Part shown: positions 7,868 through 32,000 of the stretch, piece after piece
How the letters are laid out: every line of letters starts with the position of its first letter
How positions within the stretch are numbered: position 1 is the first letter of the stretch
From: Pyrodictium abyssi
GTDB taxonomy: Archaea; Thermoproteota; Thermoprotei_A; Sulfolobales; Pyrodictiaceae
Direction of reading: 5' to 3'
Assembly: GCF_036323395.1 (NCBI RefSeq)
Contig: NZ_AP028907.1
Span: 1,860,001 to 1,892,000 of the forward strand
Length of the DNA stretch: 32,000 nucleotides
Translations under genes and position numbers: made by a program
The notes under the pieces: generated by a model
Told to the model about the DNA's origin: nothing
What the model saw: only the letters and a program-made list of their open reading frames with translations
The model's database searches: none

Positions 7868-8030
7868 ACCGTGTATAGAAGCCACCGTGGCCAGGGGCTC
7901 TTAAGGCTAACCATTCATGGCGCTGCGAGAGGACTAGTCTCAGCTTTTCCGGCTCTCTTCATCCCTCATCCCGAGGTCAAGAGACCCTCTTCTCAGCACA
8001 ACCCGGCATCAAGGGTTATAATTACTCCCG

Positions 8031-8038
8031 CTTTTAGA
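8031..8038 (+). promoter_or_regulatory. TATA-box-like element for tRNA-Gly
   Basis: CTTTTAGA is centred about 24 nt upstream of the tRNA-Gly 5' end. A second A/T box, GTTATAATTA, lies at 8015-8024. Confidence 0.4.
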
Positions 8039-8057
8039 GTGATGCCTATGTGGGGGC

Positions 8058-8136
8058 GCGGCGGTCGTCTAGCCTGGACTAGGACGCCGGCCTTCCAAGC
8101 CGGTGATCCCGGGTTCAAATCCCGGCCGCCGCACCA
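8058..8136 (+). tRNA. tRNA-Gly (anticodon UCC)
   Basis: GCGGCGG acceptor pairs with CCGCCGC, the anticodon stem is CCGGC/GCCGG with loop CUUCCAA, the T arm is CCGGG-UUCAAAU-CCCGG, and CCA is encoded. Confidence 0.95.
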
Positions 8137-8263
8137 AACCATAATCCAGCGCCTCTATCCACATCGGTTCCCGCTTGCCGTGTCCCTTGTTCTTCTACCT
8201 CTTCTACCCATACTTTCGCCTCTCAGTATACTGCAGGCTAGGAGCCGAGGACCCGGGAAGAGT

Positions 8264-9694
8264 ATGGTCTTAGCCAGGATACTTCGGCGGCTACGTTCCC
8301 GCAGCATAGTGGAGGTTACTGGGGTCAGCGAGCAGTTTATAGACCACATGGACGTTTTCTACAAGCGTTTAGCAGCTATTGGTGGACGCTATGTCTTTGA
8401 GTGCCGCTCGGGAACATGTCTATCGTTTATAGAGCTCCCATCAAGCGATTACCAGGCAATAGTCGCAGCGCCAGGCCTAGACGTGAGAAACCCTAGCCAA
8501 CAAGGCAAGATGAATGGATACACGCTACTTCCCCCTCCGCGTGGCGATAGAATACTCTGGTGCGGCAAGACTAAGCCAGATAGCGATGAACGCTATGGGA
8601 TAATCCTGGGCTACTGTGCTAATGCAGCTGTAGTGCTCGACGAGGATAGCTTGCTCAGACACATACTCGTAGTTGGCTCCACGGGCTCGGGCAAAAGCCA
8701 TACCGCGGCACGGATAGCCATGTGTAGTAGTAGAATAGGTTTTAAGCCCATTATACTAGACTGGCACGGAGAATACGAACAACTGTTGGGGAGACACTAC
8801 GCCGGAGACTACACGGTCCTATCTTATCCGGATCTGCCGCGCGTAGCGTTTACCAGTAGCAGTATCCCTCTAGAGTCGTCCATATCGGTACTGGAACGCA
8901 CTCTAGACCTTAGCCCATTCCAATCCAGTATACTAGCTGCGTTCCTAGTGCTGGCTACACAGCAAGACGCTGCTACTGCTAAAGGGCTTCTAGACGTCGT
9001 GGTCAACCACATAGAGCGGGACGAGGTAAAGGAACTAATGGATACACTCAAAAGCGGGAACACCGTGCACGAACTTATACATGTAATTTCTACAGTATTC
9101 AATAAAAAGCGAAATGATTTCACGAGAGCCGAGCAGGAGATATGGCTTGCACTTCTAAGAAGACTCAACATAATAGCTACAAGCCGATATGCAAACATCT
9201 TCGCTATAAGGGAGACAAAAGAGTTGCTTAAGACTATACATATTGACGACTATTCCCCCACTATAGTTAGGCTGGACACTATATTATCGCTACGTATAAG
9301 GAAAATGTACGCTGTATACCTGCTGCAGATGCTATACACACTCGCAAACACTAATGGCACTAGGATATTGGTTGTAGTAGAGGAAGCACACAACTTGCTA
9401 GATAATAAAGTCGTCTCGGAACTTATAGCCGAGACACGCAAATATGGGATAGGGTTTTTAGTAGTAGTCCATACGCCGCGCATACTCCCTGAGCTGAGCG
9501 AGGCGAACTTCAACACAATAATAGCGCACAGAATAACGTCAGTAAACGATAGGCTTGTCATTGCAAAGACACTAGGGCTAGATGACGACTCAATCTTATC
9601 AAAACTTGAAGAAGGCGACGTACTAGTAAGAAGACACGACATGAAGACACCGCTACTTGTAAAGGTTGAACATAAAGCCCCATGTACACCCTAG
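8264..9694 (+). CDS. HerA/FtsK-superfamily ATPase (DUF87-type, HerA/VirB4/CedB-like)
   Basis: Walker A is in LLRHILVVGSTGSGKSHT (about 8672-8703). Walker B is ILVVVEEAHNLL (about 9361-9400), the EEAH signature of HerA/DUF87 ATPases. The ORF track starts at 7871 but that reading runs through tRNA-Gly. The first ATG after the tRNA is 8264 (MVLARILRR), giving 476 aa. Confidence 0.75.
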   Translation: MVLARILRRLRSRSIVEVTGVSEQFIDHMDVFYKRLAAIGGRYVFECRSGTCLSFIELPSSDYQAIVAAPGLDVRNPSQQGKMNGYTLLPPPRGDRILWCGKTKPDSDERYGIILGYCANAAVVLDEDSLLRHILVVGSTGSGKSHTAARIAMCSSRIGFKPIILDWHGEYEQLLGRHYAGDYTVLSYPDLPRVAFTSSSIPLESSISVLERTLDLSPFQSSILAAFLVLATQQDAATAKGLLDVVVNHIERDEVKELMDTLKSGNTVHELIHVISTVFNKKRNDFTRAEQEIWLALLRRLNIIATSRYANIFAIRETKELLKTIHIDDYSPTIVRLDTILSLRIRKMYAVYLLQMLYTLANTNGTRILVVVEEAHNLLDNKVVSELIAETRKYGIGFLVVVHTPRILPELSEANFNTIIAHRITSVNDRLVIAKTLGLDDDSILSKLEEGDVLVRRHDMKTPLLVKVEHKAPCTP

Positions 9695-13090: not shown

Positions 13091-13215
13091 TGGCGCCGGG
13101 GGCGGGATTTGAACCCGCGCGCCCCTCCACGGGGCAGTGGGTCTCCCGGTCCTGCCTAGAGCCGGAAAAGGTCTGGTCTCGAGCCCACCGCCTTGGACCG
13201 CTCGGCCACCCCGGC
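13091..13215 (-). tRNA. tRNA-Ser (anticodon CGA) with 35-nt intron at the canonical 37/38 position
   Basis: The reverse complement has acceptor GCCGGGG/CCCCGGC, the 5' anticodon stem strand GUGGG and loop CUCGAG. A 35-nt insert follows (plus coordinates 13143-13177), then A-CCCAC, a long variable arm, T arm GCGGG-UUCAAAU-CCCGC, and G-CCA. Confidence 0.9.
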
Positions 13216-27390: not shown

Positions 27391-27735
27391 TCATTCTTCC
27401 ATCTCGGCTAGCCGCTCAAGCGCCAACCGCATCTGCGCATATACTACGGGCTTCTTTTCCGCTATCTTCCGGGCCAGCTCTCCCACATCTCTGGCGAAAC
27501 TGTAGAGCCCATAGGGTGTATAGAATACCTCGCTACAGTGCCACATGTGGGGCTTTAGCGAGCCTTCAGCCACCATCTTGGCGTACACCCAGTCATAGTA
27601 GCTGGCTACTGCTATCAGTATGCCGTCCTCATCCCCACAGTATAGTAGGGAGCATTCTCCGCTACTCTCTACCTCTACTATCTTGCTACATGCTCCAGTC
27701 TTCCTTAGCTCCTCGGCGAGCAGCTCTGTAGACAT
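27391..27735 (-). CDS. hypothetical protein (114 aa)
   Basis: ATG start preceded by GGGAG at a 5-nt spacing. The stop is 15 nt before the EMAP-domain gene, so the two are probably co-transcribed. The composition is plausible for a globular protein. I recognise no family. Confidence 0.5.
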   Translation of the reverse strand: MSTELLAEELRKTGACSKIVEVESSGECSLLYCGDEDGILIAVASYYDWVYAKMVAEGSLKPHMWHCSEVFYTPYGLYSFARDVGELARKIAEKKPVVYAQMRLALERLAEMEE

Positions 27736-27926: not shown

Positions 27927-27963
27927 GGGGTACCGCGGGGAGGACTAGCGGGTCTGGTACCCC
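27927..27963 (-). other. perfect 8-bp GC-rich hairpin (GGGGTACC / GGTACCCC, 21-nt loop) just downstream of the 372-aa gene
   Basis: Read directly from the sequence. It starts 12 nt after the stop at 27975-27977 and sits inside a GC-rich, ORF-poor 240-nt spacer (27736-27974). It could be a 3'-end or stability element, or part of a small RNA. Confidence 0.4.
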
Positions 27964-27974
27964 TAACAGTGTTG

Positions 27975-29093
27975 TTAGTATGCTCTTACACTGCATCTGG
28001 CTATGTTGCGTTCGCATAGCTGTAGTGCTGCTTTTAGATACTCTTCACCACGCTTGTACACCTCTAGGAGGTCGATGACGTCCTTTTCTACTAGTTCTAT
28101 TAGTAGCTCTTCTTCTAGCCTTGTTAGGCCCAGCTGCTCTCTACCCACTGCTATGACTTCTATTATCTCTGCAAGGCTGACCGCTGTCTGGTTTATACCT
28201 GCAGCTGAGGCTATCCTCGATGATAGCTTCTCCACTAGACGCCGTGTATTGCTTATCTTCTCGTAGGCCTTACGTACACCAGCCACTATTACTCCTAGCT
28301 CGTCTAGGTCGTTAGCTTGGCTAAGCTTCTCTGCAGACTCGTAGGCTGACACTATGCTTGTGACTACCTGGGATAGCCACCTACAGTAGGGAGCGTCATC
28401 ACCCATATAATCACGGCATACCTGTAGCGCCTCGGATAGGTCGACAAGGCTAGAAGTTAGTGTATCTAGTAGCTGTACTATTTCTGTGAGCCGCATAGCT
28501 ATGGTATCCAGCCGCGCTAGGCTTGTGTCGAGGCTATCAGACTTTACGAGCTTTGATACTAGTATGACGATGTCGTGTATCTTGGCTGTCTCCCTGGCTT
28601 CTAGCTTCCGGGCAGCCTCGTAGACCTGTACTAGCTGGCTGCTTACTGTGTCCCAGCGGGCTGCGATACGCTCTGCGTTCTTAACAAGGTCGCTAGCTAT
28701 CTCAGCTCCGGCTGCGAGGAGCGAGTACACTATGGGCGTTAGTGGCCCACCCGCCTTCATGACTGCTACTAGGAGCTCCATGCTCTTGGCGGATGGGCAT
28801 TCTCCGGCTTCGAGGGGCGACCCTGCAATTCGGTGTGCTAGTGTCTGGAGGGCTTGGCGGCATGCTGTAGTCGATTCCTCGTGCGCCTTGGCGTAGCTGG
28901 AAGCTGCGGTGTAGTCCCGTACCGCTCGCAGGTGATGGAGTATCTCCTGGCGTAGACTCTCGGGAACAGCTTGAAACGCTGTAATGGTTGCTTCTACGTT
29001 CTCGGCTATCTCCTCTAGGGTCTTCTCTATAGCCTGCTGAGAGTTCAGTATCGACTCGTACTCCTGGACAAGCCCTTCAAGGGCCCACGCCAT
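27975..29093 (-). CDS. hypothetical all-alpha / coiled-coil-like protein (372 aa), partner of the upstream NTPase
   Basis: The ATG at 29093 is preceded by GGGTGAT, which overlaps the TGA stop of the upstream gene. Ala/Leu/Glu/Ser-rich sequence runs throughout with heptad-like stretches. The C-terminal approximately 60 aa (LTRLEEELLIELVEKDVIDLLEVYKRGEEYLKAALQLCERNIAR) could be a small helical or winged-helix-like module. I recognise no family. Confidence 0.65.
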   Translation of the reverse strand: MAWALEGLVQEYESILNSQQAIEKTLEEIAENVEATITAFQAVPESLRQEILHHLRAVRDYTAASSYAKAHEESTTACRQALQTLAHRIAGSPLEAGECPSAKSMELLVAVMKAGGPLTPIVYSLLAAGAEIASDLVKNAERIAARWDTVSSQLVQVYEAARKLEARETAKIHDIVILVSKLVKSDSLDTSLARLDTIAMRLTEIVQLLDTLTSSLVDLSEALQVCRDYMGDDAPYCRWLSQVVTSIVSAYESAEKLSQANDLDELGVIVAGVRKAYEKISNTRRLVEKLSSRIASAAGINQTAVSLAEIIEVIAVGREQLGLTRLEEELLIELVEKDVIDLLEVYKRGEEYLKAALQLCERNIARCSVRAY

Positions 29094-29099
29094 GGCATA

Positions 29100-31826
29100 T
29101 CACCCTACTACTGCTTCTTCACTAGCCTCTCGGTGGGCGTGTTCAACTGGAGCCTGGGGCGAAATAACACGGTCTATTGCCTCTATTATCTTCTTCTTGA
29201 GTTCCTCTATTCTTGCCCCGCCTTTCTCGGAGAGCGTCCTCAGCTTGTTCACTAGGCCTACCGCCTTGGAGAGATAATGGGCGGCGTCGGTGAGACTGGC
29301 TATACTGGATAGGTCTCTAGCGATGGCCTCCTCCGCCTTCTTGCGGAGATCACTAGGTAGTTCGCCAAGCCCGACTTCAAGGCCTTCGTAGACCCGGTAT
29401 ATGGCTGCAAGCTCCTCAGCAAGTTTTGGCACGACAGCTGTTATCTGTGAGACTGCTATGGCCGCTAGAGCCCCTGCAGACGGGCTGGTTTTTGCTATCC
29501 TCTCTGCCTCTGACATCACAGCCTTCATTTCTTCAGCTATCTTTGCTGCTTCTCCAAGGATTCCTACTCGGGGGATATGCTTGGCATAGGCTGCTAGTCT
29601 TTCCGTCAGCGAGGCAGCCTCAGCTAGGCTTGCCTCAGCCTGGTACTTTTCTAGGCCGAGCAGTACTGCTACTAGCCGCGCTACTCTAGGCCTGCCGGCT
29701 CCACTAGCTCCGCAAGATGGCGAGACGTTGGCAACTAGGGTGTACCCCTTCTCTTCTAGCGTCGTGTAGATCTCCTCGACGCTGCTGAAAGCCTTCGAGA
29801 TCGTCTTTGTTCTTGCAGCTCCTGCTTGCTCAACGCCAGCTATACCGGCGGTCTTCTCTGCAAGTAGACGTGCGCGCTGCTGCAGAGATGCTATTTCTGC
29901 TGCTATCTTCCTCGCTGGCTCGAGACCCGCTTCGCGTATTAGCGCGGCAACTGCGTAGCCTAGCTCACCGTACTCGCGTTCTACTACCTGGGCGCGTGCC
30001 TCTATACTGGATAGTTCCTGGATACTCCTGGATGCCAGCACCTCTATTACGAGGCTGCGTAGAAGATCCGCGTAGAGGTTCACCGTGCGCCTATCGTGCC
30101 CAGAGAGGTTCTCTGGCAGACACCCGGTCGTCGCCACGGAGAAGCCATAGAGCAGCGAGTATACGAAGAGGCTTAGTCTTGGCCCTGCCTCTATCACCAC
30201 GCTGCCAGTTATGTCGGCCACGGCTTCTAGCAGCTTTGGCACTTGCCTTTCCCGGCGCCCCGCGTCGGGTTCGAGTACGAGAATCGCTAGAGGCTCTCCG
30301 GATAGCATCTGGCACGCGAGCTCCTGGGCGTAGGACTGGAGGCTGCGTGCGGGAACCGCTGCTAGCTTTAGCCCGTGCTTTTCGAGCAGCTCATTGAGCC
30401 CTAGGAACTCTGAGAGCCTCGAACTGTACTCGGAGAACTCGCTCAGTGATAGGCTGTTTACCACCTCGACTACCTGGCCTGGTCCGGTCCTCCTGGCACA
30501 GCCTACGAGCGGCGAGCTGCTAGCCATCGGGTATAAGCGCGCCACTATACCGGGTCTTAGCGCTGCTACGGGCTCATCGAATCTCTCCAGGGGTGGGCTC
30601 AGGAGGTCAGGGTTTAGGGACTCGATTAGCTGGGCTGCGTGCGGGTCGTCGCCGTATATCTCACGGGCCACGTCTGCCGCTATAGCGAATAGCTCACGTA
30701 GAGCCTGGGGGTCGTATACGATGAGGCCGTCTCGGCTCCATGCTAGTGCTGTGTGCTCTAGTGCCGAGACTGCATGCTCTACGGAAGAAGCCTGGAACCC
30801 TTTAGCCCGCGCGTAGCGGGTCATCCAGGTCTCTGCTTCTGAGAGGAGGTCCTCTACGCGGACAGCAGTCCTAGAGTATACTACGGCTAGGCTGGCTTCG
30901 GGGAGGACCTCGTAGCCCAGCAGCTTGCCTAGAAGCGAGAGGGGGACCGGCCCCGGGAGGACTGCCAGTAGTGGTACCATCTTCTTGTCCTCTATGAGTC
31001 GGCGAGCCTCCCTGTACCCAGCCTTATCGAATAGCGGCACGCCTTCGACTATCTCACGGGCTAGGGCCTCCTCGCCGAGGAGCACTGTCTCGACATGCTC
31101 TGGCCCCTGTTTGAGAGCAGCAGCAAGCTTGCCGACAACAGTGTCTACGAGCATACGGGCCCAGGCTATACGGCCCTTAGATGCCCACCACACCATGTTG
31201 GCTAGAAGGCTGGATACCTCTGGGAACTCGCCTCCCAGGGCCTCCGAGACCATACGCTCTATCACGGGCTTGGGGAGCAGGGGGAGCGTGAATACACGAC
31301 TACGCCACGCCACTGGACCGAACACTGCTTCCTTCAGTGTCGAGGAGGGGCCGAAGGCGAGCACGACGTATACGCTTGTGCTACGCGTCCTTATAGCCTC
31401 GGCTACACCGCGGAACGGCGAGGTCTCGTACTCCACGATGCCGCGGAGTAGATCATAGCTCTCCTCCACCTCATCCACAAGGATCACTACGACGCCGCTA
31501 ACATTGCCGAGCTTCTCCCTGGCATACTCCTCTAGTATCTTCGGTAGCTCGGACTCGTGTATGCTGCCGTAGCGCTCAACTATGTACTCCACGATGTCGG
31601 CGAGCTCTACGCGGATCGCCTTAGCACCAATACTTTCGACAAACCGCTCCAGGTACCGCAGGAGAGTGGTCTTGCCCGAGCCGTAGGGGGCTACTACCAC
31701 CGGCATCCAGTACTCGGCAGCATTACCCTTCACGTAGCTAGTGATAAGCTCTTCTAGCTCCGTCCTTATCCGGCGATGCTCTTCGCTTAGATCACACCAC
31801 CCGGTCTCGAAGCAGCTGGCCTCCAA
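29100..31826 (-). CDS. large P-loop NTPase (908 aa) with about 700-aa helical C-terminal region, family unassigned
   Basis: The TTG start follows immediately after an in-frame TGA. Walker A is VVVAPYGSGKTTLL (about 31668-31700) and Walker B is VVVILVDEVEE (about 31462-31496). The rest is Ala/Leu/Glu/Arg-rich with no catalytic motif I can recognise. The antisense ORFs on the plus strand are Arg/Ser/Ala-rich artefacts. Confidence 0.75.
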   Translation of the reverse strand: MEASCFETGWCDLSEEHRRIRTELEELITSYVKGNAAEYWMPVVVAPYGSGKTTLLRYLERFVESIGAKAIRVELADIVEYIVERYGSIHESELPKILEEYAREKLGNVSGVVVILVDEVEESYDLLRGIVEYETSPFRGVAEAIRTRSTSVYVVLAFGPSSTLKEAVFGPVAWRSRVFTLPLLPKPVIERMVSEALGGEFPEVSSLLANMVWWASKGRIAWARMLVDTVVGKLAAALKQGPEHVETVLLGEEALAREIVEGVPLFDKAGYREARRLIEDKKMVPLLAVLPGPVPLSLLGKLLGYEVLPEASLAVVYSRTAVRVEDLLSEAETWMTRYARAKGFQASSVEHAVSALEHTALAWSRDGLIVYDPQALRELFAIAADVAREIYGDDPHAAQLIESLNPDLLSPPLERFDEPVAALRPGIVARLYPMASSSPLVGCARRTGPGQVVEVVNSLSLSEFSEYSSRLSEFLGLNELLEKHGLKLAAVPARSLQSYAQELACQMLSGEPLAILVLEPDAGRRERQVPKLLEAVADITGSVVIEAGPRLSLFVYSLLYGFSVATTGCLPENLSGHDRRTVNLYADLLRSLVIEVLASRSIQELSSIEARAQVVEREYGELGYAVAALIREAGLEPARKIAAEIASLQQRARLLAEKTAGIAGVEQAGAARTKTISKAFSSVEEIYTTLEEKGYTLVANVSPSCGASGAGRPRVARLVAVLLGLEKYQAEASLAEAASLTERLAAYAKHIPRVGILGEAAKIAEEMKAVMSEAERIAKTSPSAGALAAIAVSQITAVVPKLAEELAAIYRVYEGLEVGLGELPSDLRKKAEEAIARDLSSIASLTDAAHYLSKAVGLVNKLRTLSEKGGARIEELKKKIIEAIDRVISPQAPVEHAHREASEEAVVG

Positions 31827-32000
31827 TCAGAGAGTCCCCTTAGCGAGAAATACTCCTAACCGCCAAGCCGGAGTAGTAAAAACCCTCAGACCCATACACT
31901 CCATCCAACCGGGCGTGATGACCCCGCGCCTCCGGAGCCCAGATACGCAAGGCTCCACAGAAGGGGCTGTGAAGAGGGTCTTGAGTGCTGATTACCCCTA

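Follow-up and report, generated by a model that had tools for sequence, protein, structure and literature searches.

A two-gene AAA+ ATPase and helical-partner module of Pyrodictium abyssi, probably a reduced derivative of a defence-type sensor or scaffold

The window analysed here, a 32,000-nt stretch of the Pyrodictium abyssi genome (contig NZ_AP028907.1, positions 1,860,001 to 1,892,000), carries on its minus strand two adjacent genes that an initial annotation, made from the sequence alone, had singled out as an unassigned module. The first encodes a 908-aa ATPase and the second a 372-aa acidic, all-helical protein, which we call the partner. What is new is the family that these two proteins represent, an AAA+ ATPase with its adaptor; the fold and the defence-type ancestry are of a known kind, and in this lineage the module is reduced and chromosomally fixed.

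Both open reading frames (ORFs) lie where the initial annotation had placed them (Table 1), and the TTG start of the ATPase gene does stand immediately 3′ of an in-frame TGA (ctgaTTGgag). Because homologues pair with the N-terminus MEASCFETGWCDLS from residue 1 onward in the alignments, this start is credible. The stop codon of the ATPase gene (TGA, 29100-29102) is embedded in GGGTGAT as had been described, but the spacing to the partner ATG (29091-29093) needs a small correction, the intergenic gap being 6 nt and not 7. A GGTGA/GGAGG-type motif is found ~3-12 nt 5′ of the partner start in ~14 of the 19 loci listed, and the pair is predicted from its sequence to be co-transcribed and translationally coupled. 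The closest homologues of the ATPase are a metagenomic protein with 98% identity and the proteins of P. delaneyi (80%), P. occultum (68%) and Hyperthermus butylicus (53%). Relative to the 98%-identical relative, the ATPase has a ratio of nonsynonymous to synonymous substitution rates (dN/dS) of 0.18 and the partner one of 0.19, with no internal stops, and at greater distances the ratios for the pair are 0.07-0.14; ATPase and partner are real genes under purifying selection. The possibility that the long ORF is a fusion created by a frameshifted assembly is excluded by these low ratios, by the lack of internal stops and by the existence of full-length homologues (830-910 aa), which span 94-100% of the length of the ATPase.

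Table 1. Features of the ATPase-partner locus and its surroundings (positions are those of the 32,000-nt window)
Feature	Position	Strand	Basis and remarks
ATPase gene	29100..31826	minus	908 aa; ORF call, 47 homologues, model, dN/dS
Walker A (P-loop) APYGSGKTTLL, ATPase residues 46-56	31659..31691	minus	sequence and 36-homologue alignment
Walker B VVVILVDEVEE, ATPase residues 112-122	31461..31493	minus	alignment; model strand 113-118
Invariant R175 (with W174), base of strand 176-180	31302..31304	minus	candidate arginine finger; alignment and DSSP string
Invariant R219 (WWASKGR motif), start of lid helix 220-240	31170..31172	minus	candidate sensor-2 arginine
C-terminal all-helical arm, ATPase residues ~576-888	29163..30101	minus	model DSSP; shorter than in five-gene relatives
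GGGTGAT, Shine-Dalgarno-like motif	29099..29105	minus	holds ATPase TGA; 5 nt before partner ATG
Partner gene	27975..29093	minus	372 aa; all-helical, acidic product; ORF call, linkage, dN/dS
Small winged-helix module, partner residues 325-368	27990..28121	minus	alignment; model pLDDT 84-92
Inverted repeat GGGGTACC/GGTACCCC	27927-34 and 27956-63		8 bp, GC-rich, 21-nt loop, no T-run
21-nt block ATGGGTCTGAGGGTTTTTACT (minus-strand reading)	31877..31897		includes A/T box; candidate shared/divergent promoter
C/D-box small RNA-like element	31915-31991	plus	divergent from ATPase gene
p114, 114-aa Cys/His-rich protein	27391..27735	minus	conserved neighbour of the pair

The two Walker motifs noted in the ATPase are intact, and among 36 aligned homologues A46, Y48, G49, S50, G51, K52, T53, D118, E119, E121 and E122 are invariant. 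GSGKT (residues 49-53) and ILVDE (residues 115-119) fall within one alpha/beta core, the strand order of which, in an AlphaFold2 model built on the 36-sequence alignment (mean predicted local-distance difference test score, pLDDT, 86.3), is consistent with the AAA+ fold. In the model the core is five-stranded, with two helices (75-85 and 91-106) between strands 2 and 3, and it is preceded by an N-terminal helix (15-33) bearing a WxDLSxEHxxxRxxLE motif that is kept even in distant bacterial members of the family. A helical lid (186-256) and a winged-helix-like domain (257-323; basic, isoelectric point, pI, 9.2) are predicted to follow the core. Based on their positions, read from the DSSP string of the model, R175 is a candidate arginine finger and R219, invariant together with W213 and W214 among the aligned homologues, a candidate sensor-2 residue; both stand where these elements are expected. 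Residues 324-575 are modelled as helical and alpha/beta middle domains, and the arm beyond them (~310 aa) as a series of helices of 10-45 residues. Sequence conservation falls off past residue ~470 and is poor in the arm. The initial annotation had divided the protein into an NTPase of ~200 aa and an all-helical tail of ~700 aa, a division that the model contradicts by placing several globular domains with beta strands (258-260, 315-323, 368-370, 413-423, 487-492, 513-518 and 543-547) ahead of the only purely helical part, residues ~576-888.

Its suggestion that the NTPase is ORC/Cdc6-like in style was borne out by Foldseek searches of the model against the PDB, which returned AAA+ proteins only (RuvB, spastin, Orc1/Cdc6 (2qby_A), RFC, p97 and proteasomal Rpt subunits) at E-values of 2.5e-5 to 3e-4, with probability 1.00 and target-normalised TM-scores of 0.4-0.5 over 260-330 columns; a search against viral structures gave generic AAA+ proteins only. 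The product of the first gene is thus best described, on the strength of its predicted structure, as a divergent ORC/Cdc6-style AAA+ ATPase with a lid and a winged helix. By sequence the module is unassigned, as had been stated, since neither protein has an above-threshold family match in Pfam, NCBIfam, PADLOC, PHROGs or the PDB. The best Pfam match of the ATPase, AAA_22, scores 21.9 bits against a cut-off of 27, and nSTAND_NTPase5, NACHT and ORC-CDC6-like also match below threshold; for the partner, the PDB searches match designed coiled coils only.

A Foldseek search with the partner model found no fold match either (best E 0.57). The C-terminal half of the protein, consisting of long helices and a terminal winged helix, is well modelled, and the winged-helix-like module that the initial annotation had guessed at in its last residues appears there as helix 325-333, strand 339-341, helices 342-346 and 350-361, and strand 366-368. 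This region carries an LCxxG(I/L)xxCxV motif with invariant C360 and C367 that is common to all archaeal partners. The predicted winged helix is acidic (pI 4.7), which argues for protein contact over DNA binding. The further idea that the partner might itself be an effector finds no echo in the data, as the protein has no catalytic signature and no fold match, is acidic, and has relatives in whose operons a nuclease is encoded as a separate gene.

The linkage of the two genes and the extent of the family were surveyed in species-representative genomes and metagenomes, in which six-frame ORFs were labelled with hidden Markov models (HMMs). When the count was limited to non-redundant archaeal loci in which the ATPase gene is complete and followed by 1 kb or more of sequence, the partner gene was always linked, being in every one of the 47 loci the next gene after the ATPase in the same orientation. 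With the longest-ORF start of the partner as reference, 46 of these loci have an intergenic spacing of -44 to +48 nt, with a cluster around -4 to +7, and the remaining one has +172 nt. A C-terminal partner HMM recovered the remaining archaeal partners, including those too diverged for full-length detection. In a bacterial branch of the family, a 1187-aa ATPase and a 513-aa product of the gene downstream also exist fused as one 1701-aa protein, which supports a physical partnership of ATPase and partner. An exhaustive search with the ATPase profile yielded 222 cluster representatives at E ≤1e-3 from archaea and bacteria, mostly of 1000-1700 aa, and the seven distant members tested had no above-threshold Pfam match. 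A literature search by locus tag and keywords returned no description of the family, which, to judge by these searches, is unannotated and absent from every library searched. The initial annotation had named several findings that would count against its reading of the pair, namely a confident match to a characterised housekeeping family, homologues without Walker motifs, unlinked genes and an artefactual fusion; instead, no family matched above threshold, the Walker motifs are invariant, the genes are linked and the ORF is no artefact.

In most archaeal relatives the pair is the front end of a longer operon. The order is ATPase (1000-1118 aa), partner (370-446 aa), a YprA/DpdJ-like superfamily 2 (SF2) helicase (875-993 aa), a DrmB-like protein (776-922 aa) and a PLD nuclease (240-265 aa), and it is complete or nearly complete in ~27 loci. 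This five-gene form is near-universal for the archaeal family outside the Pyrodictiaceae and Desulfurococcales; its carriers include Thermoproteales (Vulcanisaeta, Caldivirga), Thermofilum-like archaea, Culexmicrobium, a Pyrodictiaceae metagenome-assembled genome (MAG; locus L017) and many hot-spring metagenome contigs. The helicase finds its best PADLOC match in DpdJ (1e-58), followed by DrmA, DruE, SngC and BrxHI, and also matches Pfam DEAD and Helicase_C. The match to DpdJ continues, at model positions 783-838, in the product of the fourth gene, where an invariant Cys4 cluster and a recurring, though weak, DUF1998/MZB signal (4 of 15 sequences, best E 0.035) are also seen. The last gene matches PLDc_2 (2e-11) and DpdK/DrmC. 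No methyltransferase was seen among the profiled genes of the five-gene operons themselves, flanking genes lying outside this profiling. The operons stop at the PLD gene, and the gene that follows is usually on the opposite strand.

Other arrangements occur elsewhere in the family, and PADLOC covers none of these operons, whether five-gene, Sulfolobales or bacterial. None of the Sulfolobales loci surveyed shows the five-gene form; they carry a variant composed of an ATPase of ~1015 aa, a 356-aa partner, a 130-aa protein and a 708-aa DEAD helicase resembling SngC/BrxHI, to which an additional 1030-aa ORF is joined only in two hot-spring metagenomes (L082/L083). In Saccharolobus shibatae (L002) the locus belongs to an island that also contains toxin-antitoxin genes, IS110 and Csa3. 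Distant bacterial members are found in defence islands, beside RloB/AAA_21, DUF499/DUF1156, BrxC-PglY_N, SLFN-type helicases and methylases. The idea of a defence-type pedigree raised in the initial annotation therefore stands for the relatives, which occur with helicase and PLD genes or in defence islands; in the lineage of P. abyssi itself the pair is neither patchy nor island-like.

The bacterial loci also show some arrangements of their own. In L023/L024 (Bacteroidaceae) and L032 there are seven genes, for products of 134, 311 and 317 aa, the ATPase of 1187 aa, the protein of 513 aa, an AAA_5 protein of 582 aa and a VWA protein of 585 aa; this operon sits in a defence island beside RloB/AAA_21, and none of its seven genes is in PADLOC. 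A Polyangiaceae MAG (L025) encodes a 1385-aa member ~5 kb from a helicase-MZB-PLD (DISARM-like) cassette, with IS21-like fragments between the two.

The pair-only form seen in the window is shared by ~17 loci, from Pyrodictium, Hyperthermus, other Pyrodictiaceae and some Desulfurococcales and Thermoproteota MAGs. A neighbour-joining tree built on the conserved N-terminal part of the ATPase and rooted with a bacterial outgroup recovers these short forms as monophyletic in 200 of 200 bootstraps and places a Thermofilum-like group as their sister in 150 of 200. Since joint monophyly of the long and Sulfolobales forms is recovered in just 2 of 200 bootstraps, the short clade appears to be nested among five-gene forms, so that the pair-only state is most simply accounted for by loss of the helicase, DrmB-like and PLD genes in this lineage. 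HMMs built from the relatives detected no helicase, DrmB-like or PLD gene in the 32-kb window. The pair-only lineage has nevertheless retained all motifs of the ATPase, purifying selection on the pair and a fixed place in a housekeeping block.

That place can be followed across species. Upstream, the window, the 98%-identical relative, P. delaneyi and P. occultum share genes for desulfoferrodoxin, SfsA and a HAD hydrolase; downstream they share p114, an Alpha_Helical/tRNA-binding protein, DUF364, ZnuABC, NikR, PTP and Lon. H. butylicus has only the downstream block in common, its upstream genes being DUF432 and an MS-channel gene. The remaining genes of the window encode ribosomal proteins, RpoD, tRNAs and metabolic enzymes, and a Pfam check of the 24 larger window ORFs showed none of mobile or defence type. 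At the amino-acid level the ATPase is 80% identical to its counterpart in P. delaneyi and the partner, the faster-evolving member of the pair, 70%, and nine neighbouring genes span 62-89%; because the pair falls within the range of its neighbours, there is no sign of arms-race acceleration. As judged from these sequences, this is what would be expected of a cellular gene pair inherited vertically under constraint, and not of a mobile defence island.

Some distant members of the short form have a further gene. In two of these loci the last ~22 nt of the partner gene are shared with a gene for a DUF123 protein (L091:11665-12159 and L092:11776-12273). The products are of 164-165 aa, and the GIY-YIG pattern is clear in the second (GVYILV...YYYVGSA) and weaker in the first (STYILV...YSYIGSA). 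DUF123 is a family that we take to be equivalent to COG1833. For GIY-YIG proteins of the COG1833 type, a role as archaeal repair nucleases has been predicted (PMC1564403). On sequence grounds, the DUF123 protein is a candidate replacement for the lost PLD nuclease.

We propose that the pair derives from a defence-type sensor or scaffold module, is inherited vertically without an effector and has probably been exapted to a role in host DNA, and we give this reading a probability of about 0.6. According to this proposal, the ATPase would oligomerise by means of its candidate arginine finger and bind nucleic acid through the basic winged helix and the middle domains, and its helical arm would hold the partner, the acidic winged helix of which would serve as a protein-protein contact. 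In the five-gene relatives, ATPase and partner would form an ATP-gated complex that detects or marks its target DNA before loading or licensing the helicase-nuclease. In Pyrodictium, the complex would act without a dedicated nuclease, in surveillance or maintenance of host DNA. Exaptation is favoured because the pair is syntenic and evolves at housekeeping rates, and because the DUF123 gene overlaps the partner gene in the two distant loci. A bolder form of the proposal holds that the Pyrodictiaceae domesticated the defence-derived complex as a core DNA-surveillance or maintenance machine and that its five-gene parent is an unnamed class of YprA-helicase immunity; we advance it tentatively, as an idea that may well prove wrong.

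Several observations weigh against the proposal. Both proteins are acidic (pI 5.3 for the ATPase and 4.9 for the partner), and only residues 257-323 of the ATPase are basic, which weakens the case for DNA binding. The alignment of the partner is shallow, and the model of its N-terminal half is unreliable (pLDDT <50). Homology between archaeal and bacterial partners is undetectable by hhalign, and the C-terminal partner HMM also missed the bacterial proteins; for this reason the bacterial fusion supports an interaction of ATPase and partner by analogy only. Finally, the tree is a neighbour-joining tree of one region with a distant outgroup, calculated with 200 bootstraps, and it misplaces the bacterial L025 in the short clade, as a result of either long-branch attraction or horizontal transfer.

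The most serious alternative, which we regard as unlikely, is that the pair has kept a function as an antiviral or anti-plasmid sensor, detecting nucleic acid of the invader and activating nucleases or helicases in trans, or else blocking the invader directly by ATP-dependent binding. The homology of the pair to the front half of the helicase-nuclease operons, from which it descends, would be expected if it still served in defence, as would the location of distant bacterial members in defence islands; the partner is the faster-evolving gene of the two, and the overlap of its end with a GIY-YIG-type DUF123 gene in the two distant short-form loci might be read as an association with a nuclease. 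Defence systems, however, are usually patchy in distribution and horizontally mobile. The pair by comparison keeps strict synteny in a housekeeping block across genera and evolves at rates within the range of the neighbouring genes, and the window offers neither defence or mobile genes among the larger ORFs nor the helicase, DrmB-like and PLD components of the relatives.

A very unlikely alternative makes the pair a scaffold of SMC/kleisin or cytoskeletal type, in which a kleisin-like partner would bridge a coiled-coil ATPase, its winged helix capping the head, and the complex would organise the chromosome or cell structure. The long helical arm of the ATPase and the C-terminal winged helix of the helical partner lend themselves to such a comparison, and there are PADLOC matches of LmuB type at E 0.021 for the partner in the window and at 6e-5 and 6e-4 for two relatives; these E-values are weak, and the matches lie on compositionally biased helical regions. 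The SMC/kleisin pair was rejected as an assignment, since both Walker motifs lie between residues 46 and 122, within an AAA+ fold and not an ABC/SMC head, the arm is built of helices of 10-45 residues instead of a single long antiparallel coiled coil, and Foldseek matches the partner neither to ScpA nor to kleisins (best E 0.57).

The least probable explanation, that the ATPase belongs to a known family, either BrxC/PglY of BREX or the STAND NTPases, and has diverged too far for profile searches to recognise it, has in its favour a domain order like that given for BrxC in the available account (PMC12839542) and the sub-threshold Pfam matches, and is hard to reconcile with the lack of any Pfam match to BrxC-PglY_N, DUF499 or DUF2791 at E ≤1 and of any PADLOC match to BrxC/PglY, with hhalign comparisons to BrxC-PglY_N and DUF499 proteins that align the P-loop or Walker B alone at probabilities of 27-45%, with the fact that PglZ, PglX, BrxA and BrxB are never adjacent in the window or in ~60 related loci, and with a candidate arginine finger, unlike typical STAND proteins. 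STAND NTPases were rejected also by score, nSTAND_NTPase5 reaching 13.8 bits against a cut-off of 34 and NACHT 12.4 against 26.7, and by the lack of TPR, WD40 or LRR repeats.

The pair is accompanied by several smaller features. The A/T box GTAAAAAC (31877-31884) that the initial annotation had seen upstream of the ATPase gene is present and conserved, and it belongs to a 21-nt block in which GTCTGAGGGTTTTTACT is invariant from Pyrodictium to Hyperthermus, while P. occultum and H. butylicus deviate at one position of the ATGG before it. Lying ~50 nt 5′ of the ATPase start, the block may serve both directions as a promoter or may be the site of a regulator; because the A/T box lies 31 nt 5′ of the C box of a divergent C/D-box small RNA (sRNA)-like element, it may mainly serve that element. 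The sRNA-like element comprises a C box (GTGATGA, 31915-21), a D′-like CGGA (~31933-36), a C′ box (GTGAAGA, 31969-75) and a D box (CTGA, 31988-91). Across more than 15 related loci, its 12-nt guide at the D box, GGGTCTTGAGTG, is almost unchanged and the C-box guide CCCCGCGCCT is largely conserved, with a variable spacer between them. The element extends to Hyperthermus and to a MAG with an ATPase of only 34% identity, and it has no match in Rfam.

On the other side of the pair, the perfect 8-bp hairpin reported by the initial annotation does exist, but the 98%-identical relative has only a degraded form of it and P. delaneyi and P. occultum have none. Because of this lack of conservation in orthologous loci, its 21-nt loop and the absence of a T-run, we rejected it as a conserved terminator, and the inverted repeat (27927-27963) is probably non-functional. 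The gene beyond it, p114, adjoins the pair on either strand in 13 short-form loci. Its product has conserved C16, C28 and C33, an MWHC motif (H66, C67) and PYGxYxF, without a match in Pfam, NCBIfam, PADLOC, PHROG or the PDB. A relationship to DUF123 was considered and rejected, as hhalign shows none. From its conserved residues and position, p114 may be a small metal-binding protein tied to the module, possibly a third member of its short form, or may owe its place to mere synteny.

Two observations concern other parts of the window. A 607-aa ORF (7871-9694) with a HerA-like DUF87 domain from residue 252 contains a same-strand tRNA-Gly gene (8058-8136), and because the tRNA lies inside the ORF, the true start must be further downstream. 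A tRNA match of 122 nt (13094-13215) was called by Rfam and not by ARAGORN, and an intron is probable.

If our reading of the pair is correct, the family connects a scaffold ATPase of ORC/Cdc6 or BrxC style with the YprA helicase-nuclease modules of DISARM, Dpd and Druantia, and its AAA+ and adaptor front end would offer, in hyperthermophilic archaea, a simple candidate for a device that recruits or licenses YprA-type helicases. The Pyrodictium lineage can then be regarded as a natural experiment in which the front end was long retained after loss of the effector. Should the pair work alone, it would reveal what the sensor or scaffold half does unaided and would provide a clear case of an immune module exapted for the host; should it signal to effectors in trans, it would mean that the parts of a defence module can be scattered over a genome and still be vertically inherited. 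If the bolder idea of domestication holds, the pair would be a core machine of organisms that grow at 100 °C and above.

Among known systems, BREX offers the closest analogue of the ATPase in its layout. BrxC, the proposed oligomeric, DNA-bound scaffold ATPase of BREX, is described as an ORC/Cdc6 AAA+ domain followed by a winged helix-turn-helix (wHTH), an alpha+beta domain, a second wHTH and a coiled coil of 250-500 aa (PMC12839542), and within the limits of that description the secondary-structure order of our ATPase model agrees with it. The features in common with BrxC/PglY, as far as these are covered by the same account, are a large ORC/Cdc6-type AAA+ module, an arginine finger (a candidate here) and a variable C-terminal helical arm. 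BrxC, however, has 1200-1300 aa compared with the 908 aa of the window ATPase, and ATPases of the window type are never accompanied by PglZ, PglX, BrxA, BrxB or BrxL and have an obligate helical partner gene, which BREX lacks. The ATPase is thus predicted to be laid out like BrxC, yet it parts from BREX both in sequence and in gene context.

For the operons of the relatives, the nearest systems are DISARM and Dpd, the restriction core of which consists of a YprA-like helicase and a PLD nuclease module (PMC12458937). The five-gene operons resemble them in having a split YprA-like helicase, with matches to DpdJ, DrmA and DruE, and a DpdK/DrmC-like PLD protein, and differ in carrying no methyltransferase or 7-deazaguanine genes. 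They also differ from DISARM, Druantia and ARMADA in their accessories, which are the AAA+ ATPase and the partner instead of DrmD/DrmE/DrmM, DruH or BrxHII/PglX. The locus in the window is not itself a DISARM or Dpd system, because the helicase, nuclease and modification genes are missing from it.

Lamassu (LmuB/LmuC) and Wadjet (JetABC) have the ABC/SMC fold, in contrast to the AAA+ fold predicted here, and sequence connects them to the family only through the weak, biased LmuB matches; in concept they are alike, as each combines a helical-arm ATPase with a helical winged-helix adaptor that controls a nuclease. Orc1/Cdc6 and RuvB differ from the ATPase in that E-values reach only ~1e-5 at 13-17% identity, ~600 residues of the ATPase are extra and there is no profile match. 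They are nonetheless its best structural matches, and they have in common with it the trio of AAA+ core, lid and winged helix.

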